Assembly: GCA_016196035.1 (NCBI GenBank)
Contig: JACPYM010000059.1
Location: forward strand, 52,528-116,527
Length of the DNA: 64,000 nt
Direction: 5' to 3'
From: Acidobacteriota bacterium
GTDB taxonomy: Bacteria; Acidobacteriota; Blastocatellia; RBC074
Under the pieces are notes generated by a model. That model did not search any database and was not told where the DNA came from. It saw only the letters and a program-made list of their open reading frames with translations. Positions within the stretch are counted from its first letter, which is position 1, and every line of letters starts with the position of its first letter. Made by a program: the position numbers and the translations under genes. This document shows, in pieces, positions 1,360-27,078 of the stretch.

Positions 1360-1479
1360 AGTCGTAACTCCTTTGCCCCAGCATTCTAAAGCAGGCGCGG
1401 TGCAACCGAAAGGAAACTTTCTGTGAGACGGCATTGGAAAGAAATCGAATGAAACTTGCTCTATCGGAGGCGAATTTTC

Positions 1480-3221: not shown

Positions 3222-3492
3222 ACGATGCAACCACTCACACCGGAACAACGCGAACTCATATCATCGCTCGCTGAGACGCTTGGTGCGATCAGCGGAATCA
3301 AGGCCGTTGTACTGGGCGGTGCGCGTAATGTGAGAGCGACTCAGCCTGTCACTGCCGGCATTGGCAGGTTGACAACCTGCCCAACGGGCGGCATCTCGCT
3401 AATCCAGTTCCATCCATCTTATATTCATCCAAGACGTCACTGTGCCAGGGCGTATACTGACTGTCAGCGTTTTTCAGGCTGGGAGAAAAGAG

Positions 3493-5055: not shown

Positions 5056-5064
5056 GAGGTAACA

Positions 5065-7674
5065 ATGATGATTCGCAAACATCGAAGATTAGCGCTGTGC
5101 ATAAGTACCCTGCCGCTGCTGATGTTCCTGACTTTTGGCACCAAAGCCAGACTGATACAGCAACCAACGCAAGCAGCGGCGCTTTCGCAACAAGCCTACA
5201 GAATCTTGCAACAAAACTGCTTCGGCTGTCACGGCGCGGCGCGCACGTCAGAGCTTGATCTACGCACGGCAGAAGGCATCCTTGCGGGCGGTGAAAATGG
5301 CAAAGTGATTGTCCCCGGCGATGCGCAAGCAAGCCGTTTGTTTCAATTCATCACGCAGCAGGAAAAGCCAACGATGCCGCCGGGCAAGAAGTTGAGCGAT
5401 GCCGACATCGAAGCGTTACGGCGTTGGATTGCCGCAGGCGCGCCGTTCGACGGCTTTGCGCCGATGGTGGCGGAAACAGCCAAAACAGAAAAGTTGCCGG
5501 AACGCCCGTTCACCGCAGCGGAACGCGGCTTCTGGGCATTTCAAGCACCAAAGCAAATCACACCACCGCGCGCCGCGCTTGCCAGTTGGAATCGCAATCC
5601 GCCGAATCCTATTGATGCGTTTCTGTTCGCCGCGATGAAAGCGAAAGGCGTGCAGCCTTCGCCACGCGCAGATCGCCGCACATTGATTCGCCGCGCGTAC
5701 CTTGATTTGACGGGCTTGCCGCCTGCGCCGGAAGAAGTAGAAGCGTTTGTGAATGATAAAGCGGCATCAGACGAAGCCGCTTACGAAAAGCTGATTGACC
5801 GTTTGCTTGCCAGTCCGCATTACGGCGAACGTTGGGCGCGCCATTGGCTTGATCTGGTGCGCTATGCTGATTCGGGCGGGTTTGAGTTTGATGTGGATCG
5901 GCCTGACGGCTGGCGCTATCGCGATTACGTCGTCAAGGCGTTCAATAACGACAAGCCTTACGATCAATTTATTCGTGAACAGTTGGCGGGCGATGAATAT
6001 GCACTGGATTCAGATGACGCGATGATTGCGACAGGTTTCCTGCGGCTCGGTCCCGAAGGCGGAGGCGGTGGCGAACGCGGACGGCAGGATGCGCTGGACG
6101 ATGTGATTACGACGAGTTCGCTGACCTTTATGGGGCTGACGGTGGGCTGTGCGCGCTGCCACGATCACAAGTTCGATCCGATTCGGCAAACGGATTTCTA
6201 TCGCATTCAAGCGGTGTTCGCGCCGACGCGTCCGGTTAATCATCCGCTGGTTGCAGCCGATGTCGTCGCCGCGCATCGCGCGGAAACGCAGCGCATCGAA
6301 GCGCAGCAACGACCGCTCAAGAAAGCCAAAGCCGAGCTTGAAGCGCCGTACTTAAAAATTCTTGTCGAAGAGTTTGTCAGCCGCTTGCCCGACTACATGC
6401 AAACTGCCTGGCGCACGCCGGATGACAAGCGCACACCGGGGCAGCGGCTTAATGTGCAACAAATTAAAAAGACGCTCGAAGATGATTCGCTCGCACAGAA
6501 ACTGACCGAGAAAGACATCGTCGCGCGGATGTCGGCGGTAGATAAACAAAAGCAGCAAGATTTAGTCGCGCAAATCAAAACGCTCGACAAACAAAAGCCG
6601 AAGCCATACGCAACCGCGCGCGCCATTGGTGAAGGTGGGCCAAATCCTGCGCCAACGTATTTCCTGCATCGTGGCAACTTCGATTCTAAAGGCCCCGCAA
6701 TGACGCCGGGCGTGTTGTCAATCGTGGGCGACTATGAATTCCCGGTGCCACCTGCCAATGCGAAATCAAGTTGGCGGCGGCGCGGCTTGGCCGAATGGCT
6801 GACGAACAAACAGAATCCGTTGACTGCGCGCGTAATGGTCAATCGGCTCTGGCAGCATCATTTTGGCGAAGGCATCGTGCGCACGCCCAGCAACTTCGGC
6901 AAGATGGGCGAATTACCTTCGCATCCTGAATTGCTGGATTGGCTGGCACTTGAATTTATGAATGCGGATTTCGGAATGCGGAATGCGGAATCCAAAACCA
7001 ATCCGCAATCGAAAGGCTGGAGCGTGAAGCAGATGCACCGCCTGATGATGACTTCGCAGGCTTATCAAATGGCGAGCAACGACATTGCCGCCAACGTGGT
7101 GCTTGATCCTGAGAACCGGTTGTTCTGGCGGATGCCGCGCGTGCGGCTCGAAGCTGAAATCATCCGTGATTCGATCTTGGCGGTGGCAGGCAATTTGGAT
7201 CGCACGTTGGGCGGCCCGTGCATTTATCCGTACATTGATCCGAAGCTGTTTCAATCGAGCACGAAACGCACGTGGCCGGGCAAGCCGGATGACGATCCGG
7301 CGACGTGGCGGCGCAGTTTGTACGTGTATTCCAAGCGCAGCATTCGCTATCCGTTGTTCGAGACGTTCGATCAACCGAACCTCATCAATTCGTGCGAACG
7401 CCGCAACCGCTCCACCATTGCGCCGCAAGCCTTGCTGCTGATGAATAACAGCTTTGTGTTGGTCGAAGCGCGGAAGTTTGCCGAACGCTTGCGCACGGAA
7501 GCGGGTGCGGATGTGCAACGCCAAGTCGAGCGCGCCTATCAATTGGCATTGGGCCGTGCGCCGAGCGAGTTTGAGCGCACGAAGTCCATCGCATTTATGC
7601 AAGGCAATCCGAATGGGTTGGCGGAATTTTGTCAGGCGTTATTCAACCTGAATGAGTTTGTATACTGGCAGTGA
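5065..7674 (+). CDS. PSCyt1 (planctomycete cytochrome c) / DUF1549 / DUF1553 (PSD1) domain protein
   Basis: N-terminal CxxCH 'CFGCHG' heme motif followed by DUF1549/DUF1553-type sequence; immediately upstream of DUF1501 partner. Confidence 0.8.
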   Translation: MMIRKHRRLALCISTLPLLMFLTFGTKARLIQQPTQAAALSQQAYRILQQNCFGCHGAARTSELDLRTAEGILAGGENGKVIVPGDAQASRLFQFITQQEKPTMPPGKKLSDADIEALRRWIAAGAPFDGFAPMVAETAKTEKLPERPFTAAERGFWAFQAPKQITPPRAALASWNRNPPNPIDAFLFAAMKAKGVQPSPRADRRTLIRRAYLDLTGLPPAPEEVEAFVNDKAASDEAAYEKLIDRLLASPHYGERWARHWLDLVRYADSGGFEFDVDRPDGWRYRDYVVKAFNNDKPYDQFIREQLAGDEYALDSDDAMIATGFLRLGPEGGGGGERGRQDALDDVITTSSLTFMGLTVGCARCHDHKFDPIRQTDFYRIQAVFAPTRPVNHPLVAADVVAAHRAETQRIEAQQRPLKKAKAELEAPYLKILVEEFVSRLPDYMQTAWRTPDDKRTPGQRLNVQQIKKTLEDDSLAQKLTEKDIVARMSAVDKQKQQDLVAQIKTLDKQKPKPYATARAIGEGGPNPAPTYFLHRGNFDSKGPAMTPGVLSIVGDYEFPVPPANAKSSWRRRGLAEWLTNKQNPLTARVMVNRLWQHHFGEGIVRTPSNFGKMGELPSHPELLDWLALEFMNADFGMRNAESKTNPQSKGWSVKQMHRLMMTSQAYQMASNDIAANVVLDPENRLFWRMPRVRLEAEIIRDSILAVAGNLDRTLGGPCIYPYIDPKLFQSSTKRTWPGKPDDDPATWRRSLYVYSKRSIRYPLFETFDQPNLINSCERRNRSTIAPQALLLMNNSFVLVEARKFAERLRTEAGADVQRQVERAYQLALGRAPSEFERTKSIAFMQGNPNGLAEFCQALFNLNEFVYWQ

Positions 7675-7689
7675 GCCGATGCGACTGAG

Positions 7690-7801
7690 AGGAGAGGAGA
7701 GAACGCGGAACACACGGAAATAACGGAAGACACAGAAAGATTCTTACGACTAGATTTTTCCGCTATTTCCGTTATTTCCGTGTGTTCCGCGTTCTCTCCT
7801 A
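7690..7801. repeat. Family C hairpin element (about 35-bp stem, ACGGAAATAACGGAA core), copy 1
   Basis: aggagagaacgcggaacacacggaaataacggaa ... ttccgttatttccgtgtgttccgcgttctctcct are reverse complements; related copy at 34628..34726. Confidence 0.7.
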
Positions 7802-7811
7802 AGGCACAAAT

Positions 7812-9237
7812 ATGAATCCGATTTGTTTTTCACGCAGAGAACTTTTATCTAAACTCGGCGGCGGCATCGCGGGCGTAGCCTTTGCCGATTTGCTCAATCG
7901 CAACGGCCTGTTGGCACAGACGCCTGCGCAATCCAAGTCGCCGCTTGCGCCGAAAGCCCCGCATTTTCCCACCAAAGTCAAAGCGGTCATCTCCATCTTT
8001 TGTTACGGCGGTGTCAGTCAGGTGGATACCTTCGATCCCAAACCGATGCTGCTCAAGCGACAAGGCGAAACGATGACGGGCGTGGGCGAAGTGCGCGCGT
8101 CAATGGGAACGCCGGGTGGCATAATGCCGTCGCCGTGGCAGTTCAAAAAGCACGGGCAATGCGGGATGGAGATTTCCGAACTGTTTCCGCACGTCGCCGA
8201 ACACGCCGATGATCTCGCGTTGATTCGTTCGATGACGGCGCTCAGCCCGGCGCACGGGCCTGCGCTCTTTCAAATGAACACGGGCAGCATTCTGGCCGGA
8301 CATCCCAGCGTGGGCAGTTGGGTGACGTATGGCCTCGGCAGCGAGAATGAAAACCTGCCGGGCTTTATCGTCTTCACCGATCATCGCGGTGGGCCGATCA
8401 ATGGCGCACCGAATTGGGGCAACGGTTACATGCCTGCGGCGTATCAAGGCACGCCGTTTCGTGACAGCGGCGATCCGATTGTGGACTTGCATCCGCCGCA
8501 AGGACGCACGCCGGAGCAACAACAAAAATGGCTGCGGCTCTTGCGCGAACTCAACGAAAAGCATCTTGATCACAATCCGGCAGACAGTGAATTGTCAGCG
8601 CGCATTCATTCGTATGAACTCGCCTTTCGCATGCAGACGCACGCGACCGATGCGATTGACATCAGCAAGGAATCCGCCGCGACGCAAAAGCTTTATGGCG
8701 TAGGCGAGCAGCCGACCGATTATTTCGGCAAACAAGCATTGATGGCGCGGCGCCTGGTCGAACGGGGGCGTGCGCTTCGTGCAAATCTTTTCGGGTGGCG
8801 GCAACTTCGAGCCGAGTTGGGACGCGCATTGGGATTTGAAAGGCAATCACGGTTTGCATTGCGCCGAGACGGACAAGCCGATTGCAGGCTTGATCAAAGA
8901 CCTCAAAAGTCGCGGCCTGTTCGATTCGACGCTGATTATTTGGCACGGCGAATTTGGACGTTTACCGATTTCAGAACGGATGGACGGGCGCGATCATAAT
9001 GCGCTAGGGTTCAGCGTGTGGCTCGCAGGCGGCGGCGTCAAAGGCGGCACGGTTGTCGGCGCGACCGATGATTACGGCTATCGCGCGATTGAAAACAAAA
9101 AGACGATTTACGAATTGCACGCGACGATTTTGCATTTGCTCGGCCTCGACTATGAACGGCTGACGTATCGGTTCAATGGCCGCGATATGCGTTTGACCGA
9201 TGTTCACGGGCGCGTCATCAACGAAGTGCTAGCCTAA
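7812..9237 (+). CDS. DUF1501 (sulfatase-like) protein with twin-arginine signal; reading frame broken by apparent +1 frameshift in a G5 run near 8764-8768
   Basis: 'RRELLSKLGGGIAGVAF' Tat motif; N-part ORF 7812.. and C-part ORF 8770..9237 are contiguous DUF1501 sequence if one G is removed ('LVERG|VRFVQIFSGGG'). Confidence 0.75.
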
Positions 9238-16871: not shown

Positions 16872-19709
16872 TTAGTGAGCCGTCTTCAATTCAAGCCACG
16901 TCGTGCCTTGCTTGAGCGGAATCGTAAACGCCGCGCGCTCCTGGTTGAATTCCTGGTGCAGTTGATAGCTGCCGCTCCCAGCAACCTGCGCAGGCTGTTC
17001 GATGCGCAAGCGGGCTTGTGGCGTTTCCGGCGTTGCGTTTGCCAAGCCCACCCGCACCGCACCTGTTTTCGCATTCACCTCGATGGCTTCAAACTGTCCC
17101 GCATCCAGCGTCAGCCACAGTCCGCGCGGCGCAATGAATACGCGCATCCGGAACGAATCGAGCGGCTGCACTTTCACCCAATCGCCCGCGTGTTTGACGT
17201 TGCCGCCGAAAGCCTGCCAGCCGAATTCGGGATGGTTGATCAAATACGTTGCTGTGTTGAGCGCGTGGCCGAAGAAGTTCGGGCCGTAATCGCCGCTGTA
17301 GGCATCCCACTTGAGCGTGGAGGGGAAAGAATGAAAGGCGACCGACGCAAAACCTTCGCGGTCAATGTTCGTGAGCGCGCCCAGCGTGCCGCCGTAGCCG
17401 ATGCGCAACAGATAATCGTCTTCGGGATGTTCGCGGTAATGCGACAGCACCGGAATCGCGTTCAGGCCGGAACCGTAATGATGCAACTGCCGCTCGATGC
17501 GCCTCAGCTTGCCGCCGTAGAGGAAATCCCAATACCGGCGGGCGTTCCCGTTGTAGCCCCAATGCGGCACGGTCGGCATATAGCCGATGATGGAATTGAG
17601 CGAAACCAGCGCCTTGTCGTCGTAGCCGAAATAATCGCACCACGCATACACCTCTTCCTGCCCCGTCGAATCCCACGCCATCTCACTGCCGAATGGGTAG
17701 GCTTCTTTGCGCCAACGTTCGGTGCGCTCTTTCATCAGCGCTTCCACCTCGGCGGCTTTTTCCGTCCAGCCCTCGCGCTTCAGGTCTTGCAGCACCATTA
17801 AGAAAATGTCGCCTTCCATCAAACCGAGCTCGACATAACCGACGCGGCGGCGATTGCGATTGTCGGCGTTGCGGCTGAAGGTGAATTTGGTCGTCTGATA
17901 CGCCTGTTCCAAATACCAATCCCACGGATGATTGCTGACGAGACCAGTGTGATTGCGCGCGATGCGATACATTGACCAATACGCCGCGACGACATGCGGA
18001 TAGTTGTAGCCGCGTCCGATGGATTCGGCATCGGCTTTCTTCCAGCTTGTCCACGTCGTCCAATTCAGCGCTGGGTCATATTGAAAGCCCGGCACATCAG
18101 CAGGCGAGTAATAAAGCATGCTCTTGCGCACGCCGTATTTGTTCGGGCCGTCTTTGTATTGCAAGCCGCCCCACAGCACGTTGTCTATGAACTGTTCGTA
18201 CTTGGCCAATTCGTCGCGTTTGGGTTGGCCGAATTGTTTCATCGCGGCGGCCAGCCACGAACCGGAACCGCCTTCATCGCCCAAGCCCGCAATCCAGACG
18301 CGGCTGTCTTGCGACACGATCTTGTCGGCTTCGCGGTCGTAGCTCATCACGGAAGGGCTACGGCGAAAGGGATCATTCGGGTCTACGAACCATTGCTTCG
18401 TCATCAGGAAGTTGCCCATGTCGGCGACGGCTTGCGCGGCGGGTTTGATGACGTAGTAGCTAATGGATTGTTGATTGCCGTCGGCGTATTTGACCAGCAA
18501 CCGTGCGCGTCCCCACGCATTGCCGCGCAGTGTATAAGCGCGCCAGCCTTGCTTGGTCGGCTTGTCTTCACGAATCGTGATGGCGTTCGCGGGTTCGGCG
18601 GCGATGCTCGCAACTTTGCTTTTGGCATTCAGAAAAAGTTTGCCTTCGATGCCTTGCGGCAGCACGTAGCCGGGAATGCCTACGGCAACGGGGCGATTGT
18701 TGGCGGCGAGTGTTGATTCGATGTTGCGGATTTCATTCGAGACAAGAAAGCGCAGGCCATACGTGCGGCTCGCGTTCGGCGCAAGCGTCGCGCTGGTCGG
18801 CGCGTTCCATTGCTCGACACCTTTCCATTCGGTTTCGGCGTAAGCCTGCGAATGCGCCATCCAGGCAAATGTTCCCTCGAAGGTTTGGGCAGGGCGCGTC
18901 GGTTCGTTGAGCAATTGATACGCTTCAAACGGCGTCTTGCCTTCGGGGACTACGACAAGCGCCGGGCCTTTGCCGCTCAGGCGCGTGACCTGCAAATAGC
19001 CCGCGTCCTGCCCGATATAAGGATCAGAGAACGAACAGATTTCATGCGCTTGTTGCAGGTTGCGTCCGGTGATGTGGTTGTTGAAGGCCAGCGGAATGCC
19101 AAGTGCGCCGAGTTGCAATGGTTCCGAAGTTTTGTTTTTGAGTTCATAGCGCAGCGCGAGGCGGCCATTGTCTACGACCCAACTGCGCGTGATTTGCACG
19201 GGGCAATCTTCGGGTAGCGTCGGCGTGAGATCCGCCGCAGCGAGTGTTGCGCCTGAAGCTGCCAACGCATTCACCGGCTTGCGTGTTGCCGTGGTCGAAT
19301 ACTCTTTCCACTCGCCCGCATTGCCTTTGCGCACACGCATCGTCAAATCGCCCAGGTGGTAATGCCCATCGCTCGCACGGCGCTCCAATCGGTCAGCCGG
19401 CGTGAAATCAAATCCGTTGCCGCCTTTTGGTTGCAAGGCCGCGATGGTTTGCGAAGCCTTGACCAGCTTGAGCGTGAAATCCGGCGTATCGAATTCCAGA
19501 TAGCCTTGTTCCAATCCGAGCGTCGGTGTGGGCGTCGGAGTCGGTGTGGGTCTGCCGGGTTGGGCTTGTTGATTTTGCGCTTGCCGGGTGAAAGGAAAGA
19601 GCGCCCCTGCCAGTAACAGCGCGCTTGCTATGCCAATGACGTTCAACTTGATTTTGCTCAAGGATGCGGCGCGCAGGGCGGCGGTTTTGACGAAGTGAGA
19701 GCGGTTCAT
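16872..19709 (-). CDS. Large secreted hypothetical protein (945 aa) with (PT)n linker; possibly glycan-active
   Basis: Signal/anchor then 'PTPTPTPTPT' linker; no motif I can name; located in carbohydrate locus. Confidence 0.5.
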   Translation of the reverse strand: MNRSHFVKTAALRAASLSKIKLNVIGIASALLLAGALFPFTRQAQNQQAQPGRPTPTPTPTPTLGLEQGYLEFDTPDFTLKLVKASQTIAALQPKGGNGFDFTPADRLERRASDGHYHLGDLTMRVRKGNAGEWKEYSTTATRKPVNALAASGATLAAADLTPTLPEDCPVQITRSWVVDNGRLALRYELKNKTSEPLQLGALGIPLAFNNHITGRNLQQAHEICSFSDPYIGQDAGYLQVTRLSGKGPALVVVPEGKTPFEAYQLLNEPTRPAQTFEGTFAWMAHSQAYAETEWKGVEQWNAPTSATLAPNASRTYGLRFLVSNEIRNIESTLAANNRPVAVGIPGYVLPQGIEGKLFLNAKSKVASIAAEPANAITIREDKPTKQGWRAYTLRGNAWGRARLLVKYADGNQQSISYYVIKPAAQAVADMGNFLMTKQWFVDPNDPFRRSPSVMSYDREADKIVSQDSRVWIAGLGDEGGSGSWLAAAMKQFGQPKRDELAKYEQFIDNVLWGGLQYKDGPNKYGVRKSMLYYSPADVPGFQYDPALNWTTWTSWKKADAESIGRGYNYPHVVAAYWSMYRIARNHTGLVSNHPWDWYLEQAYQTTKFTFSRNADNRNRRRVGYVELGLMEGDIFLMVLQDLKREGWTEKAAEVEALMKERTERWRKEAYPFGSEMAWDSTGQEEVYAWCDYFGYDDKALVSLNSIIGYMPTVPHWGYNGNARRYWDFLYGGKLRRIERQLHHYGSGLNAIPVLSHYREHPEDDYLLRIGYGGTLGALTNIDREGFASVAFHSFPSTLKWDAYSGDYGPNFFGHALNTATYLINHPEFGWQAFGGNVKHAGDWVKVQPLDSFRMRVFIAPRGLWLTLDAGQFEAIEVNAKTGAVRVGLANATPETPQARLRIEQPAQVAGSGSYQLHQEFNQERAAFTIPLKQGTTWLELKTAH

Positions 19710-19774
19710 AGCGGATTGGTTTCCTCCTTCAAGTGCAGGGAAAACGATGTGTGCGATGCGGCGTACTAAGCTGG

Positions 19775-20128
19775 TTACAGGTGATAAATCACATCGGTAC
19801 GATTGATTTCGATGAAATCAAAAACATCAAAGCCTTCGACGATCTGCTCAAGATTGGCGTGAAAGATTGCCAGCAAGTCGGCATTGCGGATGTTGCCGGT
19901 TGAAACCAGTAACAGCTTCGGCGGTTCTTGGCGCAGCAAGAACGAGTCAACAAAATCGGAATCTTTCGTGATGACTACGCGCTGCTCTTGGGCGCAGATC
20001 AGGTTAATGGTCGAGTCAGGCGTGCGATTGCCCAGCGACAACTCCTTCGTGTGGATCGCATCGTGGCCTGCTTGATGTAGCAAGTAAGCCAACCGTCGCG
20101 GCAGATGGGCGTCAACGATGAACTTCAT
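19775..20128 (-). CDS. DUF5615 (PIN-like) toxin-type protein, partner of DUF433
   Basis: 117 aa, overlaps upstream DUF433 gene by 4 bp; typical pair. Confidence 0.65.
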   Translation of the reverse strand: MKFIVDAHLPRRLAYLLHQAGHDAIHTKELSLGNRTPDSTINLICAQEQRVVITKDSDFVDSFLLRQEPPKLLLVSTGNIRNADLLAIFHANLEQIVEGFDVFDFIEINRTDVIYHL

Positions 20129-20355
20129 ACCAGCACGGGTTCGATGCGCTTGATTTGGCTCAGCCGGGCGGCATACGCCAGCACCGCCAGGATGTCTTCG
20201 CGTTCCAGGTCGTCGTAATCATCCAAAATCTCTTCCGTCGTCATGCCAGAGCTAAGTAACTCCAGAATGACTTCCACCGGGTAACGTAAGCCGCGAATAA
20301 CGGGCTTGCCGTGGCAGATTTCAGGGTCAGTTGTAATGCGGTTTAGTAGTTCCAT
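20125..20355 (-). CDS. DUF433 domain protein (antitoxin-like partner)
   Basis: 76 aa 'ICHGKPVIRGLRYPVEVILELLSSGMTTEEIL' DUF433 signature. Confidence 0.75.
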   Translation of the reverse strand: MELLNRITTDPEICHGKPVIRGLRYPVEVILELLSSGMTTEEILDDYDDLEREDILAVLAYAARLSQIKRIEPVLV

Positions 20356-20528
20356 ATTGCACCTCGATTATAAACGGCAATCGCGGGCTGGCGAATCCAT
20401 TCCTGCAACCGCCGCAGGCTTTCGTCGCGGCGCTTTTCGATCTGCGCCCAGATGGGTTGCAACTCGGCGTCATCGGCGCGCGGGAAGGATGAAGTGGTGA
20501 AGGCGGCGGCGCTCAGGGCGCGGTTCAT
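20343..20528 (-). pseudogene. Possible N-terminal remnant of an M20-type peptidase gene truncated by the TA insertion
   Basis: 61-aa ORF 'LQEWIRQPAIAV' resembles M20 dipeptidase N-termini; ends where DUF433 gene begins. Confidence 0.3.
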
Positions 20529-20581
20529 ATTTGTTCCCTCAATGCTTGGAGCAATTGGAATCAGTACAACAGCAAATGTTA

Positions 20582-21040
20582 TTACCCATCCAGAAACATT
20601 TGTAGTGGTATGCATTTCTTGAATTCAGCACGGTCTGAGTTGATTATGTGCTGGCGGATAGCAGTTCCTTGTTTGTTAAGAATGTCGTGTCCTTGCGTCA
20701 GAAAATGGCGAATAAACCCCTTTTCCGCAATGTCCAAAGCTTTCGCAATTTTTTGCCCTCTTTTCAATTGTACTTCGGCACAGATCAGAATGCGTGCGCC
20801 TCTCGGAGCGTTCTCAATCGCCTTCATCAAGCGGGCATTGTTCAACTGCTGTTTGATACGTGCGCGTAAGTTCAAAGCCTTCCCGATGTAGAGAATATGA
20901 ACTGATTGACCATGTCGTCGCGCAAATAAATAAATGCCCGATGTTTCCGGCAATTCTCCCAAGTCCGTGGTGTAAATCAGATTCTCTCTCGACCCATTGT
21001 GTAGCGGCCTGAAACGGCGCCAACTGAGGTTCACTTCCAT
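20582..21040 (-). CDS. GIY-YIG nuclease-domain protein (stand-alone, low-GC)
   Basis: 'SGIYLFARRHGQSVHILYIGKALNLRARI' GIY...YIG motif; AAGGAA RBS; AT-rich relative to flanks. Confidence 0.65.
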   Translation of the reverse strand: MEVNLSWRRFRPLHNGSRENLIYTTDLGELPETSGIYLFARRHGQSVHILYIGKALNLRARIKQQLNNARLMKAIENAPRGARILICAEVQLKRGQKIAKALDIAEKGFIRHFLTQGHDILNKQGTAIRQHIINSDRAEFKKCIPLQMFLDG

Positions 21041-21208
21041 TTTTTGATTATTCCTTTTTGCTATTCCTGGTGCCACCTGTTTCCGCCACGGAAGCAAGTG
21101 AGCCGCCCGCGATGTACCACGCGAAGCTGCGGATTTCACGAAAGCGCTGACGACCACCTGAACGGCCTGAAGCCAAGCGTCTCCCGCGTAGCAAGCCAGT
21201 AATGACCG

Positions 21209-21607
21209 CTACCAACAAATTTCGACCAAGCCTGACTCAATGATGGCCGTATCGCGCGTGATGAGCGGCAAGTCTTTGATTTTGGCCGTGGCAATAATCG
21301 CCGCATCGAAAATGTCATTGTTGAAACCATAGTTCCTGGCCTCGGCGATAATTTCAGCGTCCAACGGAGCAACTTCAAAACCCGGTTGGGCGAGCAATTC
21401 GGCCAACCACGCGCGAAACGGCTGGCCTAAATTGATCTGCCCGGTTCTTTCCAGATTCGATATTTCCCAAAGCGCCACGGCTGGGATGTAGATCAAGGCT
21501 TGGCTCTGTGCCGCACTCTCAAACGCTGCCAGCGCGCGTTTTGATAAGTGGCGTTGGCTGGTCGAGTAATAAATCAGCGCGTTGGTGTCGGTCACATACA
21601 AAGACAT
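21209..21607 (-). CDS. vapC: PIN-domain toxin VapC
   Basis: 'LYVTDTNALIYY' PIN N-terminus, 132 aa, downstream of small antitoxin ORF. Confidence 0.8.
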   Translation of the reverse strand: MSLYVTDTNALIYYSTSQRHLSKRALAAFESAAQSQALIYIPAVALWEISNLERTGQINLGQPFRAWLAELLAQPGFEVAPLDAEIIAEARNYGFNNDIFDAAIIATAKIKDLPLITRDTAIIESGLVEICW

Positions 21608-21618
21608 GGCAGGCCTTT

Positions 21619-21852
21619 CTATTCGGCCAGTTCAGCACGCAGTTGCGCGCCTCTTGCTTCAAGCGTCGCCATCATGGCGGCGCGTTGCTGCTTAGTCATC
21701 TCGTCAATCTCACCATTGACAGTCATCGAGCCTGCCAGTTGAAATTGCTCTGTCTTGACCGCCTCGGCGAACAGTCGCCGGATAAGCTGAAGCCGTTCTT
21801 GCATGGGCAATAATTGAATCTGCTGATAGATTTGTTGCTGTGCTGTGCTCAT
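21619..21852 (-). CDS. Type II antitoxin (VapB-like)
   Basis: ~77 aa small ORF immediately upstream of vapC on same strand. Confidence 0.55.
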   Translation of the reverse strand: MSTAQQQIYQQIQLLPMQERLQLIRRLFAEAVKTEQFQLAGSMTVNGEIDEMTKQQRAAMMATLEARGAQLRAELAE

Positions 21853-22013
21853 AAGCCTCCAATGCAATCAGGTCGTTGTCCTTGCCGGGCAGCGCGATTC
21901 TAAATCAGGAGAAACGACAATGGAACACTGGTTGTCGGAGTTGTGCGCCTCTTTCTTCGAGCGCAGCCCGCACAGCGGCACGTTGCCAAAGAATAAGCCC
22001 GACAAGTGAGGGC

Positions 22014-23558
22014 TTACTGTAGCCGCAATCGCAGAATCGTCAGCGAGTGCGCCGGGAAGGTGTAGTTGAATCCATTGTTTTCAACCGTCGCCGTCAGGTT
22101 GCGCGTGACGGGGCGAACTTTCTTGTCGTCGCCAAACGTGTGCGTCGCTTTCAAATCGGGATGGTTCAACTCCCACACGCCGACGGCGTTCGTCAATTGG
22201 CCTTCCTGATTATCAATGCGCGTCGTCAGGTCTTTGTCCTTGCTGCGATTCAGCACGTTGACGAAGAGCGTTTTCTCAGCCGCGTTGTAGGTCGTCGAAA
22301 CATCCAGATATTTCAGTGGCGGGCGATTGCCGACTTTATAGGTCGGCGCCGACACCAACACATTGAGCGCTTGATTGCCTTTTTGTTTGGCGAATTCCGC
22401 CAGCGGGAAATAGATCGTCTGCAAAAACAGCCCTTGTTTATTGGTCGTAATCGGCGCGATGACGTTGACCATCTGCGCCAGGTTCGCCATCTTGACGACA
22501 TCGGCGCGGCGGAAAAACGAATTGAAAAACATGCCCATCGCCAGCGCGTCTTCAAAGTGGTAAACCTCTTCCAGCTTCTCGCGGTTGCCCGTGCGATACC
22601 AGACGTTCCATTCGTCGTAGGCAATGTAAAACGGGCGCGGATTCGGATTGCCCACTTGCGCCTGTTTGATCAGTCCGGCGGTGACTTCGATGTAATTGTC
22701 AAGCGTCTGCGACCAGGCCAGAAACCGCTCAAAATCGTTGTCGCGGTTGTTGATGTAAGTATGCAACGCGATGTAATCCGCCGTGTTCTTGAGCGTGTTG
22801 ATGACGGTGCGATTCCAGTGAATCCAATCCGCACCGTAATTGCTCGAACCGCTGGCAATCAACTTGATGCTTGAATCGGTCGAGCGCATGGCCTTGGCGG
22901 CTTCGAGCGCGAATTTGGAATACTCTTCGGCGCTCTTGTTGCCGAGTTGCCAGGGGCCGTCAATCTCATTGCCGAGCGCCCAGTATTTGACTTTGTATGG
23001 CTGCTCGCGCCCATTCTTGCGGCGCTGATCGGCCCAGTACGTATGGCGCGCTTCGTTGCAGTATTCGACCCAGTGCCGCGCGTCATCAATCGTGCCGAGA
23101 CCCGCGTTGATGCAGATGTATGGCTCGGTGCCGATCGTCTCGCAATACTTCAAAAACTCATCCGTGCCGAAGCGATTGCTTTCCAGATCGTCCCACGCCA
23201 AATCTTTGCGCACGGGGCGCTGATCTTTCGGGCCGATGCCGTCTTTCCAGTTATAACCCGAAGCGAAGTTGCCGCCCGGCCAGCGCAAAATCGAAACGTT
23301 CAATTGCTTGACGACCTCCATCACGTCTTTGCGATAGCCGTCTTTGTCGGCGAGCGGGCTGCCTTCTTCATAAACGCCGCCGTAAATCATCCGCCCCAGG
23401 TGCTCGGCGAAATTGCCGAAGAGCAGCGGGCTTACGTCGCCGATGGTGCGGTCAATGTCTATCTTGATGCGGGCCTGCGGCGCTTGCGCTTTGGCGGCAG
23501 GTAAACTGATCGTGACAAAGAGAAGGGCAAACAGGCATAGAGTAAGTAGCGTGCGCAT
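22014..23558 (-). CDS. abfA: GH51 alpha-L-arabinofuranosidase, secreted
   Basis: Signal peptide; '[16 protein letters not shown]', '[12 protein letters not shown]' catalytic-region motifs typical of GH51 AbfA. Confidence 0.85.
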
Positions 23559-23700: not shown

Positions 23701-26028
23701 TCACAATTTCACTTCAAGTGGGCGTCCGGCAAAAACAACCTGGTGCGCTGCCTTTTCGCCCGCAAGGCGGATTTCAAGTCTACGTTGTTGCGGCGTTGGC
23801 GGCTTCGAGCTATTTGCCAGCCGCAACGAAAGCGTGCGGCGCGCATTGTTCCAGTTGATTTGAATCTTTGTGAACTCGCCGCGCTGGTAATTGAAGGTCG
23901 CGCCGTCGTCTTCATACAGCGTGAACACGCCGTCTGCGCCGGGATAAACGACCAGCGTCAACGGGCCATCAACCTTTTCGCTGGTGTATTGCTTGACCGG
24001 GTCAAGTGGAAGGATCGCGCCGGCGCGCACATACAGGGGCATCGTCGCCAGATCAACGGCTTTGCTGATTTCGCGTCCGCCCGCGAGTTTTTCTTCCGTC
24101 CAGAAGTCGTACCAGTCGCCGCGCGGCAAATAGACGTTGCGTGAAGTCGCGCCTTTTTCGACGACGGGCGCAACCAACACATCGCGTCCCCACAAGTATT
24201 CATCGCCGCGCAACACCGCCGTCGCATCGTCGGGATAATGCAGCCAGAGCGCGCGCATCACCGGCAAGCCCGTTTCGTGCGTTTCGCGCACGGCGGAATA
24301 CAAGTACGGCATCATGCGATAGCGCAATTCCAAATACTTTTTGCAGATTGGCTCGACTTCGGCGTTGTGCAATTCGCTCAAATCGGGATTGGCCGCGCCG
24401 CCCGTGTAATTCGAGATTTCGTTATGCCCAAGCTCACCCGTATTCCAGCCCCACGGCAAGCGCAAATGCCACGTCCGCCCGTGCGCGCGAAAGAGCGGGC
24501 AGAACGCGCCGAATTGAAACCAGCGCACGTGCAATTCGCCCGTATATTCTTTGGTTGGGACGAAGCCGCCGATGTCTGTGCCCCACCACGGAATGCCTGT
24601 CAATCCGGTGTTCACGGCGATGGGGACGTGAACTTTCAAGGTTTCCCATGTCGAATAGACATCGCCTGACCAGAGGAATCCGGCGAAGCGTTGCATCCCC
24701 GCGTGGCCGTTGCGATGCAGCGCAAACACACGCTGATTCGGACGCAAGGCTTGCGAGCCGTCGTAATACATCCGAATGCGCGCCAGCCGTGATGTCGCAT
24801 CCAGTCCATCGCCCTGATCCGGCCACCAGCCGTCAATGCCCGCGTCGTAAAGCGTTTTGTGAACAGGCCAGTAACACGCGACCTGACGGTTGTCGGGCCA
24901 TTTGCCATCGGGCGTGCGACCGCTCGGCAACGGCGCAGCAGTGCAGGCGTCTTTGACCGTGCCAGTTAATTTTCGGCCTTCGATGACGGTGTGCAGCACG
25001 ACTTTGAAATGCTGGTCGTGTAATTCGTCAATCATCTTTTTCGGCTCAGGGAAGTTCTTCGGATGCCACGTGAATTCGCCGTTGTGTGTGTTCCAACCCG
25101 AAGGCGTGAAATCGGTGCCGAGATAGATCAACGCATCGCACGGCAATTTCTTTTCGCGCAGCGTGCGCGCCACCCATTTGATTTCGTCAGGCCCTGCGAG
25201 CGTGCGATGCGATTGCAAATAGCCGAACGACCACAGCGGCGGCAATTCGGGCTTGCCTGTCAGCCGCGCGTATTCGGCCAGCACTTGCGCGGGTTCGGTT
25301 GCGCCGACGATGAAAACGTCTATCGGCAACGCGCCCAATTCCGTGCCCGCCAACGCGCCGGAGACGCTGCTCTCAGGGCGATCCGGCACGCGCGGCGTGA
25401 GCTTGCCTTCTTTGCCAGTCAGGTCAAACGAAACGAGCGGATGCTGAATCAACAGCGCCCAACCGCCCGTGCCGATGAGCCATTGAATCGGCACGCGTCC
25501 GCCGTGCGTGCGCAAGCGATAGCCGCCCTGCCCGTTGCGGTTGGTATACGTTTCGCCGCGCCGGTCGAATTGTGGGCCGCCTTCGCCAAAACCGAGCACA
25601 GGTTTGTCGCCAATCTGAAACGTCAGCGCACCCGTTTGCACGTCGGGGCGTAACTCTTGCACCAACCGCCCGTCTTTGGCTTCGATGCGGATGGTGAGTG
25701 GTTCCGGTGACAGCTTCACACGCAAATCGCCACAGCGCACCGTGCGTTCGCGGGGGAGTGAGGTCAGCCGGGCAACAGGCGCAGGCCAGGTTTGCGGGGC
25801 CAGCGAACCGTCTTCGGGCAAGGGCAGTGGTCGGCCATTTTCGAGTGCCGCGATGGTTAGCCGCAGAGTCTGGGCGCTGACCGAAGTGAGCGCGATTTCG
25901 ACGGCCTTGCCGGCAAGGCGTAAGGCGGCGTCCTGCTCCGGCGCAGGCAGATGAGTGTTCAACAGCGCGCCAGCGCCTGCCGTGCTGAAACGCTTCAATG
26001 CTTCCCGGCGCGTGATAGGTTTTTTCAT
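23701..26028 (-). CDS. GH31 family glycoside hydrolase (alpha-xylosidase/alpha-glucosidase-like), Tat/Sec-exported
   Basis: 'GIDGWWPDQGDG' and 'WWGTDIGGF' GH31 catalytic-region motifs; start at MKKPITRREALK (ATG 26028). Confidence 0.75.
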   Translation of the reverse strand: MKKPITRREALKRFSTAGAGALLNTHLPAPEQDAALRLAGKAVEIALTSVSAQTLRLTIAALENGRPLPLPEDGSLAPQTWPAPVARLTSLPRERTVRCGDLRVKLSPEPLTIRIEAKDGRLVQELRPDVQTGALTFQIGDKPVLGFGEGGPQFDRRGETYTNRNGQGGYRLRTHGGRVPIQWLIGTGGWALLIQHPLVSFDLTGKEGKLTPRVPDRPESSVSGALAGTELGALPIDVFIVGATEPAQVLAEYARLTGKPELPPLWSFGYLQSHRTLAGPDEIKWVARTLREKKLPCDALIYLGTDFTPSGWNTHNGEFTWHPKNFPEPKKMIDELHDQHFKVVLHTVIEGRKLTGTVKDACTAAPLPSGRTPDGKWPDNRQVACYWPVHKTLYDAGIDGWWPDQGDGLDATSRLARIRMYYDGSQALRPNQRVFALHRNGHAGMQRFAGFLWSGDVYSTWETLKVHVPIAVNTGLTGIPWWGTDIGGFVPTKEYTGELHVRWFQFGAFCPLFRAHGRTWHLRLPWGWNTGELGHNEISNYTGGAANPDLSELHNAEVEPICKKYLELRYRMMPYLYSAVRETHETGLPVMRALWLHYPDDATAVLRGDEYLWGRDVLVAPVVEKGATSRNVYLPRGDWYDFWTEEKLAGGREISKAVDLATMPLYVRAGAILPLDPVKQYTSEKVDGPLTLVVYPGADGVFTLYEDDGATFNYQRGEFTKIQINWNNARRTLSLRLANSSKPPTPQQRRLEIRLAGEKAAHQVVFAGRPLEVKL

Positions 26029-26063
26029 GCGGGTGTCTCCTGACTGTGTGGTTCGCTCGCTGG

Positions 26064-26759
26064 TTATTGCCCCTGCTGCATAAACTCTTTCAGTTCGCGC
26101 CCGGCCTTGGCGATGTGTTCTTCCAATAACCGGCTGGCGGCGGCGGCCTTGCGTTGACGGCACAATTCCAGAATCGTGCGGTGCTCGTCCTTGGCATTGC
26201 GGTGGGCCGCGTGCGAGAACAGGATGTGCAGGCGAATATAACGGTCGGCGTTGTTGTTGACCGTTTGAATCAGCGCGAGGGAGCGCCCGCGGTTGGCCGC
26301 GGCATAGAGCGCCGAATGAAATTGCCAATGCAAATCGCCCCAGACATCGAAATCCGCTTCATGGTTGAGCGCGTGTTCATAGGCTTGCAACGCCGCTTCG
26401 GCGCGGGTCAGGTGGGCAGCGGTCAGATGCGGCACGGCGCGGCGCAGCGTCAGGCTTTCGAGCACAGCGCGAATCTCGAAGAGTTCTTGGATCTCCTCCG
26501 CCGAGAGCGCGGTCACCACCGCGCCGCGATGATCTTGAATTTCGATCAAGCCTTCGGCCTCTAATTGGCGCATGGCCTCGCGCAGGGGAATGCGGCTGAC
26601 GGCGAATTCCTCGGCAATGGCGTGTTGGCGCAACTGCGTGCCCTCGCGCAATTCGCCGCGCAAAATCTTGTTGCGCAAGCGGTCGGCCACGGCAGTGGTG
26701 AGCGTCTGGCGGGGTATCGCCTGGCGCGGGGTGAGACTTCCGTTGATTGGTTCACTCAT
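26064..26759 (-). CDS. GntR-family (FadR/FCD subfamily) transcriptional regulator
   Basis: N-terminal wHTH 'EEFAVSRIPLREAMRQLEAEGLIEI' plus FCD-type C-domain. Confidence 0.8.
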   Translation of the reverse strand: MSEPINGSLTPRQAIPRQTLTTAVADRLRNKILRGELREGTQLRQHAIAEEFAVSRIPLREAMRQLEAEGLIEIQDHRGAVVTALSAEEIQELFEIRAVLESLTLRRAVPHLTAAHLTRAEAALQAYEHALNHEADFDVWGDLHWQFHSALYAAANRGRSLALIQTVNNNADRYIRLHILFSHAAHRNAKDEHRTILELCRQRKAAAASRLLEEHIAKAGRELKEFMQQGQ

Positions 26760-26799
26760 GGTTGTTTCTCGCAGCAATGCTAGTGCTTTTCAAATTAGC

Positions 26800-27078
26800 T
26801 CGGCTTTCACTTCGGTGTATGGAAAAACCGCGCAGCGGACGGTACCGCGCGCGTGAGCAAGCGGAGCCTGGGCGGTTCGGCCAACGGCGTAAACTTGACG
26901 CGCCGCTTGCTCACGCGCGCGGTACCGTCCCGGCCGCCGCGCCGCTTGCTCACGCGCGCGGTACCGTCCCGGCCTCACGCGCGCGGTACCGTCCCGGCCG
27001 CCGCGCCGCTTGCTCACGCGCGCGGTACCGTCCCGGCCGCCGCGCTCCCGTAAACGCAATTGCAAACCGGTCTAAGAG
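26800..27078. repeat. Family B element copy B1: 27-bp inverted arms (GGACGGTACCGCGCGCGTGAGCAAGCGG) with ~3.7 tandem copies of a 37-40-bp unit
   Basis: Tandem units 26901..27045 (cgccgcttgctcacgcgcgcggtaccgtcccggccgc); conserved termini tttcacttcggtgtatgg / cgtaaacgcaattgcaaaccggtctaag shared with B2, B3. Confidence 0.75.

Follow-up and report, generated by a model that had tools for sequence, protein, structure and literature searches.

Gene content and limits of the islet

The window is the whole stretch of DNA analysed, 64,000 nt of the MAG of a soil Acidobacteriota bacterium. Its minus strand carries, between the genes for a GH51 alpha-L-arabinofuranosidase and a DUF5695 protein, a VapB-like/VapC (PIN) pair, a stand-alone GIY-YIG nuclease, a 61-aa ORF and a DUF433/DUF5615 pair. 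The features are listed below.

16872-19661, minus: native part of the DUF5695 gene, flanking the islet (Pfam DUF5695, E = 0)
19660-19729, minus: copy B of the M20 peptidase gene 5' fragment, which brings a ribosome-binding site, the ATG at 19709 and 16 codons (MNRSHFVKTAALRAAS) and runs in frame into DUF5695
19730-19774, minus: 3' flank of the DUF433/DUF5615 cassette, common to locus L001, inside a continuous 869-bp match of 90% to L001
19775-20128, minus: DUF5615 (COG4634/Mut7-C-type PIN-like) predicted toxin, 117 aa (Pfam PF18480, E = 3.4e-25)
20125-20355, minus: DUF433 (COG2442) predicted antitoxin, 76 aa (Pfam PF04255, E = 4e-27, full length, 1-56 of 56)
20343-20528, minus: M20 peptidase gene 5' fragment, copy A, the 61-aa stub (M20 homology 20362-20528)
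20367-20394, minus: promoter-like site TCGCCA-16-TATAAT within the stub, at its 3' end and immediately ahead of DUF433 (consensus match only, 10/12)
20582-21040, minus: stand-alone GIY-YIG nuclease of an unnamed family, 152 aa, with the GIY-YIG alpha/beta fold
21073-21200, minus: fragment of a Zn-dependent alcohol dehydrogenase (Zn-ADH)/quinone oxidoreductase gene, a pseudogene scar (86% to L089 8329-8456 and L088 4030-4157)
21209-21607, minus: VapC-type PIN toxin, 132 aa (Pfam PF01850 PIN, E = 1.1e-14, residues 4-122)
21619-21867 (or from 21852), minus: antitoxin candidate in the VapB position, 77-82 aa, of fitting size and 11 nt upstream of VapC
21868-22013, minus: left-hand end piece of the islet, without similarity to the spacer that separates GH51 from DUF5695 in relatives (as compared with L170/L173)
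22014-23558, minus: GH51 alpha-L-arabinofuranosidase, flanking the islet (Pfam Alpha-L-AF_C, E = 2.7e-40)

The original prediction had placed DUF433/DUF5615, the GIY-YIG nuclease and VapBC within about 2 kb, and all of them are present on the minus strand. The limits it gave, 19775-21867, are too narrow: comparison with relatives sets them at 19662-22013 (about 2.35 kb). Two fragments had escaped it, the second M20 piece at 19660-19729 and the Zn-ADH piece at 21073-21200, a 55-nt portion of which also matches L087 and a second copy in L089. At the left end, positions 21936-21986 repeat the 3' end of VapB in decayed form (direct repeat D1, 51 nt, 78%), with a weak match to the same gene end in L088/L089. 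The islet is of low GC, as had been stated (0.524 against 0.580 for the whole window, among the lowest 1% of equal-sized windows). The GIY-YIG gene, described as the lowest-GC ORF, is so within the islet (0.464); the first 500 bases of the window have still less GC (0.37-0.40).

No tRNA gene that could serve as an integration target lies within the 64-kb window, and neither the ORF list nor Pfam gave a recombinase ORF in 19.6-22.0 kb. An Rfam scan of 19400-22300 at E <= 1 returned no match, and terminator and promoter scans gave counts not above those of shuffled sequence. An HMM search of the islet proteins against the PADLOC defence models, a check put forward with the original prediction, yielded no significant full-length match; DUF5615, the stub, VapC and VapB had no match, and DUF433 matched only Csm2, at E 0.057.

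The islet is an insertion fused to the DUF5695 gene

In the closest DUF5695 loci (L170-L173, 83-86% nucleotide identity) GH51 is followed by 125 nt and then DUF5695, and the window GH51 is itself 83-84% identical in nucleotides to the GH51 immediately upstream of DUF5695 in L170/L173; in L169 a GH31 gene directly precedes DUF5695. It follows that all of 19662-22013 has been inserted, in agreement with the earlier claim of an islet inserted in a carbohydrate locus.

At the right end, DNA homology of DUF5695 to L170, L173 and L167 extends to about 19600-19664, and the native start codon is now a TTG at 19661-19659. Upstream of it stands copy B of the M20 5' end. L001 10024-10891 aligns by blastn with window 20525-19660 at 90%, window 19700-19790 used as query matches L001 10760-10850, and M20 residues 1-23 match 19709-19641 by tblastn. 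Copy B is cut at M20 +50 and joined in frame to DUF5695 at the second base of its start codon, so that the junction reads TCCTT/GAGCAAA in the window and GTGAGCAA in the orthologues. The listed orthologues are 923-933 aa long and begin MSNFRLK... or MNKNKQT..., against a window call of 945 aa; the 16 extra foreign codons are absent from all of them. The join would be illegitimate, with 1-nt microhomology, and translation of DUF5695 would now use the ribosome-binding site and the ATG that came with the M20 fragment. The genes downstream of DUF5695 in L169 (h180) and downstream of M20 in L001 (h181) were considered as possible equivalents and are unrelated.

The 61-aa ORF is a peptidase fragment within a duplicated gene end

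The 61-aa ORF is a fragment of a peptidase and not a peptidase. It is the 5' end of a gene for a secreted M20 peptidase whose intact homologues are 499 aa, and it covers only M20 residues 1-57 (signal peptide and first helix); the catalytic and dimerisation domains of Peptidase_M20 are absent, and it has no Pfam match. Among the loci fetched, more than 160 have an M20 gene whose N-terminus is matched by the stub in tblastn. M20 homology extends to 20362, 7 nt short of the DUF433 ATG (20355), which bears out the earlier reading of an M20 N-terminal stub ending at the DUF433 start. A protein search had returned only short ORFs (56-83 aa, 10 database entries) and thus seemed to deny the ORF any homology to longer proteins, until tblastn overturned this result. 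A PDB sequence search with the stub alone gave chance matches; the M20 identity came from genomic context. The stub DNA is 94.5% identical to L090 over 165 nt and differs from the intact L090 M20 gene at 3 of 141 nt. It has also undergone a 21-nt in-frame deletion that removed the seven codons of the Tat motif. Beyond the two 5' fragments, the 64-kb window contains no further M20 sequence.

Loci L001 and L002 display the same junction beside a complete gene. Here a direct repeat of about 205 bp of the M20 5' end (-22 to +185) flanks the DUF433 pair, which sits at M20 +185; the upstream copy is a decaying stub, and the downstream copy keeps M20 intact. In L002, the stub copy has lost its ATG and has a stop at codon 4. 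The notion that insertion broke the peptidase gene finds no support in relatives, where DUF433/DUF5615 is flanked by this duplication and M20 is intact. Both L001 copies are about equally distant from the empty-site alleles, so this comparison does not tell the element-borne copy from the native one.

Duplication of a gene end by an inserting element is familiar from Escherichia coli, where an icd' pseudo-copy lies beside e14 or phage 21 in icd, and from SXT, which supplies a replacement 5' end of prfC. As in these cases, the insert is flanked by a direct repeat of the end of the target gene, with one copy functional and the other a stub. Unlike them, it has no integrase or recombinase in or near it, it consists of only about 0.65 kb of TA genes, and the repeat takes in the 5' end including the ribosome-binding site.

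Relatives reveal a cargo-swapping hotspot between ADH and M20

The comparator loci are metagenome contigs 82-90% identical to the window, not sister strains. In them the M20 neighbourhood consists of Zn-ADH fragments, variable cargo, M20, h181 and M61. Between the Zn-ADH 3' end and the M20 5' end of close relatives the cargo differs in every genome sampled and includes TIR, MT-A70, HEAT-repeat, FGE-sulfatase, Rpn-like, VapB with a nuclease, and GIY-YIG genes. The Zn-ADH gene end is present three times in L089, and a 22.7-kb JGI contig has an ADH_zinc_N_2 fragment at the equivalent place. Empty sites, with no TA pair and a single M20 5' end, are found in L087-L090, whose M20 is 94-95% identical in amino acids to that of L001. 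The same state prevails in 80 species-level genomes, which are too distant to inform on the neighbours of M20, since M61 and h181 are not conserved beside it there. Relatives with an intact peptidase gene, which the original prediction had suggested comparing, thus exist (intact M20 without the TA pair in L087-L090), but none has it at the GH51-DUF5695 position.

In the general concept of a defence or cargo hotspot, conserved core genes bracket cargo that is swapped by recombination between the flanking homologies. The ADH-M20 interval resembles such a hotspot in that each relative has different, co-oriented cargo between the Zn-ADH 3' end and the M20 5' end, much of it defence- or addiction-like. 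It differs in that the ADH and M20 anchors are themselves fragmented and duplicated, and in that a piece of the hotspot has moved, anchors included, into another operon. The order of the window block (VapB, toxin, ADH fragment, cargo gene, M20 stub, DUF433/DUF5615, M20 5' copy) is colinear with the hotspot, and its VapB and ADH fragment are 84% and 86% identical in nucleotides, respectively, to L088/L089.

A closer relative, L174, has an Rpn-like gene, the GIY-YIG gene, the stub and then DUF5695, with no DUF433 pair; DUF5695 there retains its own GTG and, before it, about 30 nt of the native leader. M20 is joined to DUF5695 from +177 to -30 in L174 and from +50 to +2 in the window. These different junctions require at least two events, and the absence of the DUF433 pair from L174 means that the islet was formed in at least two steps. 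The view of the islet as one unit is consequently untenable: GIY-YIG and the stub occur without DUF433/DUF5615 in L174, and VapB has another downstream gene in L088/L089.

Origin of the islet

We consider it probable that 19662-22013 is a composite addiction/nuclease islet that was assembled in the cargo-swapping hotspot and now lies between GH51 and DUF5695 of an arabinan/xyloglucan-type utilisation locus. Recombination would have brought the block here, and with it the pieces of M20 and ADH, as scars or homology anchors. Most likely the stub came in with the islet and was not left by disruption of a resident gene. Insertion into a pre-existing gene, as first proposed, does not agree with the absence of M20 at this position from every orthologous GH51-DUF5695 locus.

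Disruption in situ is the chief alternative, and we regard it as unlikely. M20 would once have lain between GH51 and DUF5695, and the TA pair together with later deletions would have left the two 5' fragments. The neighbours of M20 in L001, namely M61, DUF1501 and PSCyt, recur in the window at 3.4-9 kb (74-83% nucleotide identity), 10-16 kb away from the islet, so the M20 and carbohydrate loci may once have been neighbours; M61 also adjoins the GntR-GH31-DUF5695 locus of L169. The present order could thus stem from local deletions or inversions instead of block import, which counts against the composite islet, and the different junction at which the L174 stub adjoins DUF5695 would fit independent deletions from a longer ancestor. 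Against this, five orthologous loci (L167, L169, L170, L172, L173) have no M20 upstream of DUF5695, the ADH fragment and VapB stand in the same order as in the distant ADH-M20 hotspot, and two independent deletions must both end within 32 nt of the DUF5695 start.

A good deal more speculative is the idea of a mobile unit that needs no recombinase and in which the M20 5' fragment has a working role. The fragment would provide promoter and ribosome-binding site for the promoter-less TA pair, its second copy would restart the downstream gene, and both copies would serve as homology anchors by which genomes with an M20-like 5' end capture the cassette and neighbouring cargo, such as GIY-YIG, through homology-facilitated illegitimate recombination. 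In a bolder version, the adjacent GIY-YIG protein would make the breaks near M20 +185 that seed such events.

Two further kinds of element were rejected. An integrase-mediated integrative element or CIME does not agree with the missing recombinase, nor with a flanking repeat that is a gene fragment of about 205 bp and about 90% identity instead of a short, exact att-type core at both ends. An integron-like array was considered for the co-oriented cargo; inspection of the spacers showed nothing like the inverted repeats of attC, and they consist of gene fragments instead.

The two TA pairs and the stub as a possible leader

The islet is built of familiar components: a GIY-YIG nuclease and two TA pairs of the PIN type. 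DUF433/DUF5615 is a predicted type II TA pair, judged from its sequence: DUF433 (COG2442) is a predicted PIN-associated antitoxin (PMC2701414), and the DUF5615/COG4634 family is a predicted TA toxin (PMC5499597; for the TA families see also PMC4963859). DUF5615 has weaker Pfam matches to Mut7-C (1.8e-7) and PIN_10 (2.6e-7). The dN/dS is 0.09 for DUF433 against L001 and L002 and for DUF5615 against L001. The pair shares the antitoxin-then-toxin order of the predicted COG2442(DUF433)-PIN(COG4634/Mut7-C) pairs (Mycobacterium tuberculosis VapB45/VapC45, Rv2018/Rv2019; Synechocystis slr0770/slr0771-type), with a small DUF433 gene followed by a PIN-like gene of about 117 aa, a 4-nt overlap, strong Pfam matches and purifying selection. 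Unlike pairs of the VapB45/VapC45 type, it has no upstream region of its own, starting 7 nt after a fragment of a peptidase gene, and is bracketed by the duplication of about 205 bp of the M20 5' end.

Lacking upstream DNA of its own, the DUF433/DUF5615 pair may depend on transcription that starts inside the stub or passes through it, and this would account for stub and pair staying together. The TATAAT of the promoter-like site stands where M20 has GAAAAT, and L001 has TATAAT too; the number of such sites in the region is not above shuffled expectation. That the 61-aa ORF is itself a functional small protein or the leader peptide of the DUF433/DUF5615 operon is very unlikely. An open frame of 56-83 aa is retained in the 10 database entries, with a ribosome-binding site before most copies and a stop that overlaps or abuts the DUF433 start. 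These features are outweighed by the loss of the start codon in the P0007 allele as well as in the L002 copy with its in-frame stop at codon 4, by the seven codons missing from the window allele and ends that vary between alleles, by a stub dN/dS of about 0.3-0.4 (few sites) against 0.09 for the TA genes, and by L174, which has the stub and no TA pair.

The second pair resembles type II VapBC modules in having a PIN toxin preceded, at 11 nt, by an ORF of about 77 aa in the antitoxin position. It departs from them in that the upstream protein matches no antitoxin family above threshold (VapB15, E 0.015; TIGR02574, E 0.047; HTH_22, E 0.0033). The ORF opens at TTG 21867, and the likely start is ATG 21852 behind a GGAGG. 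Residues 1-76 are 83% identical in amino acids to L088/L089, where the protein that follows is an unrelated one of 216 aa, in which a PD-(D/E)XK-like motif was recognised by eye; recombination thus appears to have given the antitoxin gene different partners. By family membership and purifying selection, the two PIN-type toxins would be held in check by cognate DNA-binding antitoxins, and the segment would be stabilised by addiction.

The GIY-YIG nuclease

The GIY-YIG protein belongs to a family of nucleases of about 155 aa (at least 419 clusters) that is seen only in environmental assemblies and bears in the source databases only the name 'hypothetical protein'. Its catalytic motif is intact: among 36 family members G35, Y37, Y51, G53, R61 and N122 are invariant and E106 is conserved in at least 90%. 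The Pfam GIY-YIG model scores 16.8-17.3 bits, below its cut-off of 22.6, and 15 of the 36 relatives match it at E <= 0.01. The modelled protein is a single domain with a fold resembling I-TevI and T4 EndoII, a conserved N-terminal beta extension (W7) and C-terminal strands. Set against the GIY-YIG superfamily (the N-terminal domain of UvrC/Cho, T4 endonuclease II, R.Eco29kI and the I-TevI catalytic domain), it is without a DNA-binding or partner domain. The dN/dS is 0.03-0.05, and the L174 protein differs from that of the window at 5 of 152 aa. Family membership and this purifying selection suggest that it is an active, solitary DNA endonuclease.

The protein had been proposed as the effector of an abortive-infection pair. 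Such a two-gene defence unit, with VapBC or DUF433/DUF5615 as the neighbour, would suit the defence-type cargo of the region in relatives (TIR, MT-A70), the strong purifying selection and the weak match to the PADLOC candidate single-gene family PDC-S14 (E 0.003-0.005; 22 of the 36 family members match, best E 7e-6). That match is confined to a catalytic motif of about 38 residues in a 301-residue profile, and the protein finds no match in plasmid and phage collections. Across four different contexts no neighbour is common to the homologues: the gene upstream of GIY-YIG is VapC in the window and Rpn-like in L174, small genes unrelated to these take that place in L003 and L004/L005, and what lies downstream varies too. 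Because GIY-YIG has no conserved partner, the pair is unsupported, and we give it only a slender chance.

Slenderer still is the chance of a free-standing homing-type endonuclease that cuts M20 near +185, so that repair of the break produced the recurrent breakpoints and the capture of the TA pair: in the window and in L174 alike GIY-YIG precedes the stub by 53 nt, its fold recalls that of I-TevI and T4 EndoII, and three apparently independent breakpoints fall within about 12 nt (TA pair at +185/190, L174 at +177-180, an internal M20 deletion from +189 in L175), but stubs with the same TA junction occur without GIY-YIG in L001, L002 and the P0007 contig, the homologues in L003-L005 are not near any M20, and no DNA-binding extension is recognisable. 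Free-standing homing endonucleases combine a nuclease with a sequence-specific DNA-binding domain and are linked to their target gene, unlike this single-domain protein with homologues in unrelated contexts. The breakpoint clustering near M20 +185 is inflated by ascertainment, the protein search having given only ORFs of 56-83 aa, and for this reason we do not claim it as significant.

Significance

The locus is an informative but ordinary genome patchwork, and its value lies in the anatomy, not in the parts. It offers a base-pair-resolved example of addiction and defence cargo moving in uncultured Acidobacteriota with no recombinase in sight. The end of a target gene has been duplicated around a TA pair, fragments of both hotspot anchors have probably moved with the cargo into a new operon, and the glycan-degradation gene downstream has been rescued by joining it, in frame, to 16 codons of foreign origin together with their ribosome-binding site and start codon. 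Two warnings for annotation follow: the 945-aa DUF5695 call has a chimeric N-terminus, and clusters of a 'hypothetical' 61-aa protein in databases are peptidase stubs. The minimal GIY-YIG family, widespread in environmental assemblies and under strong purifying selection, is a candidate for biochemical study.

An islet between GH51 and DUF5695

In four relatives (L170-L173; the L-numbered loci are mostly metagenome contigs) GH43 and GH51 are followed by a 125-nt spacer and DUF5695 (DUF5695 83-86% and GH51 83-84% identical to the window in nucleotides). In another (L169), syntenic with the window at 76-82%, GntR and GH31 precede DUF5695, with GH127 farther along. At both ends of the window's islet the sequence is unrelated to the relatives' GH51-DUF5695 spacers. 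The short spacer and the unrelated ends together support the original prediction of an insertion into the carbohydrate locus: 2.35 kb (19662-22013), between GH51 (22014-23558) and the native part of DUF5695 (16872-19661), stand in place of ~125 nt. Its features, read from 22013 down, are:

Features of the islet
Leader, minus strand, 146 nt, the 5'-most part
21619-21852/21867, minus strand, ORF of 77-82 aa at the VapB position, only weak antitoxin matches
21209-21607, minus strand, PIN/VapC gene (Pfam PIN, E 1.1e-14)
21073-21200, minus strand, 128-nt gene fragment, 86% identical to a piece of the L089 zinc alcohol dehydrogenase (Zn-ADH) gene
20582-21040, minus strand, GIY-YIG gene, 152 aa (sub-threshold Pfam match)
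20343-20528, minus strand, 61-aa ORF (the stub), homologous to the M20 peptidase N-terminus
20125-20355, minus strand, DUF433 (Pfam E 4e-27)
19775-20128, minus strand, DUF5615 (Pfam E 3.4e-25, plus Mut7-C and PIN_10)
115-nt spacer ending in the DUF5695 ATG, then the 945-aa DUF5695 ORF, 16872-19709, minus strand

This gene set and a GC content of 0.524 versus 0.580 for the window (lowest 1% among equal windows; GIY-YIG gene, 0.464) confirm a low-GC toxin-antitoxin (TA) and nuclease islet. No tRNA genes were found in the window, and an Rfam scan of the islet region gave no match.

Elsewhere in the window there is a second PIN/VapC-like gene (746-1132, minus strand), which shares 25% identity with the islet VapC. 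The ORF before it (1129-1434, minus strand) reads in translation as Phd/YefM-like; the two adjoin the window's lowest-GC stretch (bases 1-500, GC 0.37-0.40). Comparison with L169 shows that the 875-aa 'GH31' ORF (23701-26328, minus strand) is over-extended at its 5' end, with a separate GntR-type regulator at ~26064-26777 (minus strand) and a GH31 gene of ~775 aa. Between the GntR-like and AraC-like genes, self-BLAST and sequence reading revealed a GC-rich head-to-tail array (26837-27045) of 73-nt units ~97% identical, with an inverted copy and the core CGCCGCTTGCTCACGCGCGCGGTACCGTCCCGGCCGC. Small addiction-type genes also occur in relatives within a few kb downstream of DUF5695: in L173 (16212-18406) a 160-aa ORF that overlaps a DUF433 gene, next to IS3-family transposase fragments, and in L169 (13952-15403) an 82-aa gene with a PIN_3 gene; at the thresholds used, neither showed homology to the window pairs.

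An M20 gene end is duplicated around the TA pair

The 61-aa ORF had been predicted to be the N-terminal stub of an M20-type peptidase, and it does match the M20 N-terminus in more than 160 fetched loci. A search with the stub protein itself returned only ten short ORFs (56-83 aa, 78-87% identical), one of them in L001, a 1-Mb contig with the order stub, DUF433, DUF5615, intact 499-aa M20 peptidase. There the stub is repeated by the ribosome-binding site and first ~57 codons of the intact gene, and alignment places a direct repeat of M20 ~-22 to +185 (counted from the M20 ATG) on either side of the TA pair. In L002 two M20 5' copies flank DUF433 and a DUF6438 gene, the second truncated at ~+225. 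In L001 the TA insertion did not destroy M20, which is intact downstream of the duplication.

No DUF433/DUF5615 or second M20 5' copy was found within 10 kb in any of 80 species-level genomes. The same absence holds for L087-L090, the four closest metagenome loci, which share 94-95% M20 identity with L001. Empty sites therefore exist, and the TA insertion is recent and limited to a narrow lineage. In some relatives DUF433 is an orphan, followed by a DUF6438 gene with no DUF5615 (a 22.7-kb JGI contig; L002 672-1506) or directly by an h179 gene (P0007 contig); these have lost the toxin gene and retained the antitoxin gene.

The upstream M20 copies are decaying. That of L002 has no ATG and a stop at codon 4, and in the window stub a 21-nt in-frame deletion removes the twin-arginine motif codons; stub dN/dS is ~0.3-0.4 (few sites). 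The window stub (20362-20502) differs from the intact L090 M20 (4484-4624) at only 3 of 141 nt, with dS 0, against 0.25-0.43 between the adjoining genes and their best relatives. The genome may thus hold a very close intact M20 at another site, or the stub may recently have undergone gene conversion from such a gene.

The TA genes are under purifying-range dN/dS values of 0.09 for both DUF433 and DUF5615 (window versus L001 and L002), with 0.16 for VapB residues 1-76. The stub had been said to end at the DUF433 start, and only 7 nt indeed separate the end of M20 homology from the DUF433 ATG, which leaves the pair without upstream DNA of its own. A TCGCCA-16-TATAAT match occurs within the stub (20394-20367), its TATAAT common to the window and L001 and sitting where M20 has GAAAAT. 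We infer that the stub may provide a promoter for the TA pair, which would account for their linkage.

The DUF5695 start is chimeric

Window 20525-19660 matches L001 10024-10891 continuously (90%) from the stub across both TA genes and their 3' flank into M20, taking in its ribosome-binding site, its ATG and the first 50 nt that it encodes, where the match ends; the 64-kb window lacks the rest of M20. Among DUF5695 proteins the closest (85-89% identical) have 923-933 aa and start MSNFRLK, MSNTKL or MNKNKQT, while the window ORF has 16 additional N-terminal codons, MNRSHFVKTAALRAAS; the LSKIKLNVIGIASALLL after them aligns with the signal peptides of the native proteins. The junction reads GCATCCTT then GAGCAAAATC, where orthologues have GTGAGCAAT; thus M20 +50 and the second base of the DUF5695 start codon are joined in frame and overlap by one base. 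The window DUF5695 would accordingly carry a chimeric N-terminus with an M20-derived start.

Probable origin in a hotspot and stepwise assembly

Comparison with a relative that has an intact peptidase gene at this locus had been proposed; none of the orthologous DUF5695 loci compared has M20 upstream. The relatives' M20 lies in another neighbourhood, adjoining a 181-aa gene, h181 (in L001 also M61), downstream of a variable region, beginning at the Zn-ADH 3' end, that holds different cargo in every contig:

Cargo between Zn-ADH and M20
L001: FGE-sulfatase
22.7-kb JGI contig: TIR_2 behind an ADH_zinc_N_2 fragment
P0007 contig: MT-A70
L175: 222-aa gene
L087: 310-aa gene
L090: DinB-like and GH43 genes (reading of ORF translations only)
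L088/L089: HEAT-repeat-like gene (translation reading); VapB-like and 216-aa genes; Rpn-like gene

In L089 (5648-8678), as in L088, the Zn-ADH 3' end occurs three times (72, 264 and ~430 bp), and in L089 the VapB-like/216-aa pair lies between the two long copies, which share 92% identity over 264 bp; this is the same duplicated-gene-end pattern as the M20 repeat. By sequence reading, the 216-aa protein has a PD-(D/E)XK-like motif, and the L089 Rpn-like gene, between Zn-ADH copies 0 and 1, a DUF4351-like C-terminal tail.

The window VapB with its leader shares 84% identity with its L088/L089 counterpart over 262 bp; beyond that the sequences diverge and the next gene differs. From VapB through the toxin, ADH fragment and cargo gene to the M20 5' end, the window runs colinear with the hotspot. 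Given this colinearity and the lack of M20 at orthologous loci, we infer that a hotspot piece with attached anchor fragments moved into the GH51-DUF5695 spacer. Alternatively, loci that were once neighbours may have been locally rearranged: M61, PSCyt/PSD1 and DUF1501, the L001 neighbours of M20, also lie in the window at 3442-8999, orthologous to L001 12998-19158 (74-83% in nucleotides), with M61 inverted and transposed, the SET-domain gene and h181 missing, and the neighbourhood rearranged.

The islet appears to have been assembled in steps. L174, whose sequence on either side is 88% identical to that of the window in nucleotides, has an Rpn-like gene, a GIY-YIG gene differing at 5 of 152 aa and a stub that keeps its ATG and ends at M20 +177, followed by ~30 nt of native DUF5695 leader and DUF5695 with its own GTG; DUF433/DUF5615 are absent from this locus. 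The TA pair and a second M20 copy may have been added to an L174-like arrangement, stub homology anchoring one side and the other being joined illegitimately, or two different deletions from a longer ancestor may have given L174 and the window. Three breakpoints fall within ~12 nt of M20 +185: the TA junction (window 20355-20365), the L174 DUF5695-leader fusion (1840-1880) and an internal deletion in the L175 M20 (2241-2528) beginning at +189. Because the search returned only ORFs of similar length, this clustering may be an ascertainment artefact, and we claim no breakpoint hotspot there. A hairpin-capable short sequence, GCCGCCgaaaatCGCGGC, lies at ~+185.

A solitary GIY-YIG protein and its family

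In a full HMMER scan at E<=1e-3 the GIY-YIG protein matched 419 cluster representatives, nearly all of 145-165 aa. The source databases give the members no name, and no match came from the plasmid and phage collections searched. In the family alignment G35, Y37, Y51, G53, R61, N122, G125 and W7 are invariant and E106 nearly so, residues that correspond to the canonical GIY-YIG catalytic set. dN/dS is 0.03-0.05 (versus L174 and L004). The protein had been proposed as effector of an abortive-infection pair. That proposal finds no support: homologues 77-78% identical share no neighbour and lie in unrelated contexts, the upstream gene is Rpn-like in L174 and VapC in the window, and among the PADLOC defence models it matched only the candidate family PDC-S14, at the level of the motif. 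We regard it as a solitary, probably active endonuclease, which may serve in single-gene defence or be a selfish nuclease.

Comparison with known systems

Pairs of DUF433 (COG2442) and PIN genes figure among the type II TA systems that Makarova et al. 2009 (PMC2701414) predicted. The PIN partner was assigned to the COG4634/PIN_10 Mut7-C group by Matelska et al. 2017 (PMC5499597), where VapB45 (Rv2018) is a solved DUF433 antitoxin, and many DUF433-PIN-type pairs are listed for Synechocystis (PMC4963859).

Duplicated or replaced gene ends occur at other elements. The icd' copy beside e14/phage 21 is a duplicated gene end, and SXT replaces the prfC 5' end. The M20 duplication resembles both, but unlike them the islet has no recombinase. 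Variable cargo between conserved anchors fits the general picture of defence hotspots. The original observation of the islet is correct and its interpretation partly so. The islet's components are of ordinary, known kinds; the analysis adds the duplication around the TA pair, the chimeric start of DUF5695, a probable hotspot origin, the stepwise assembly and the unnamed GIY-YIG family.
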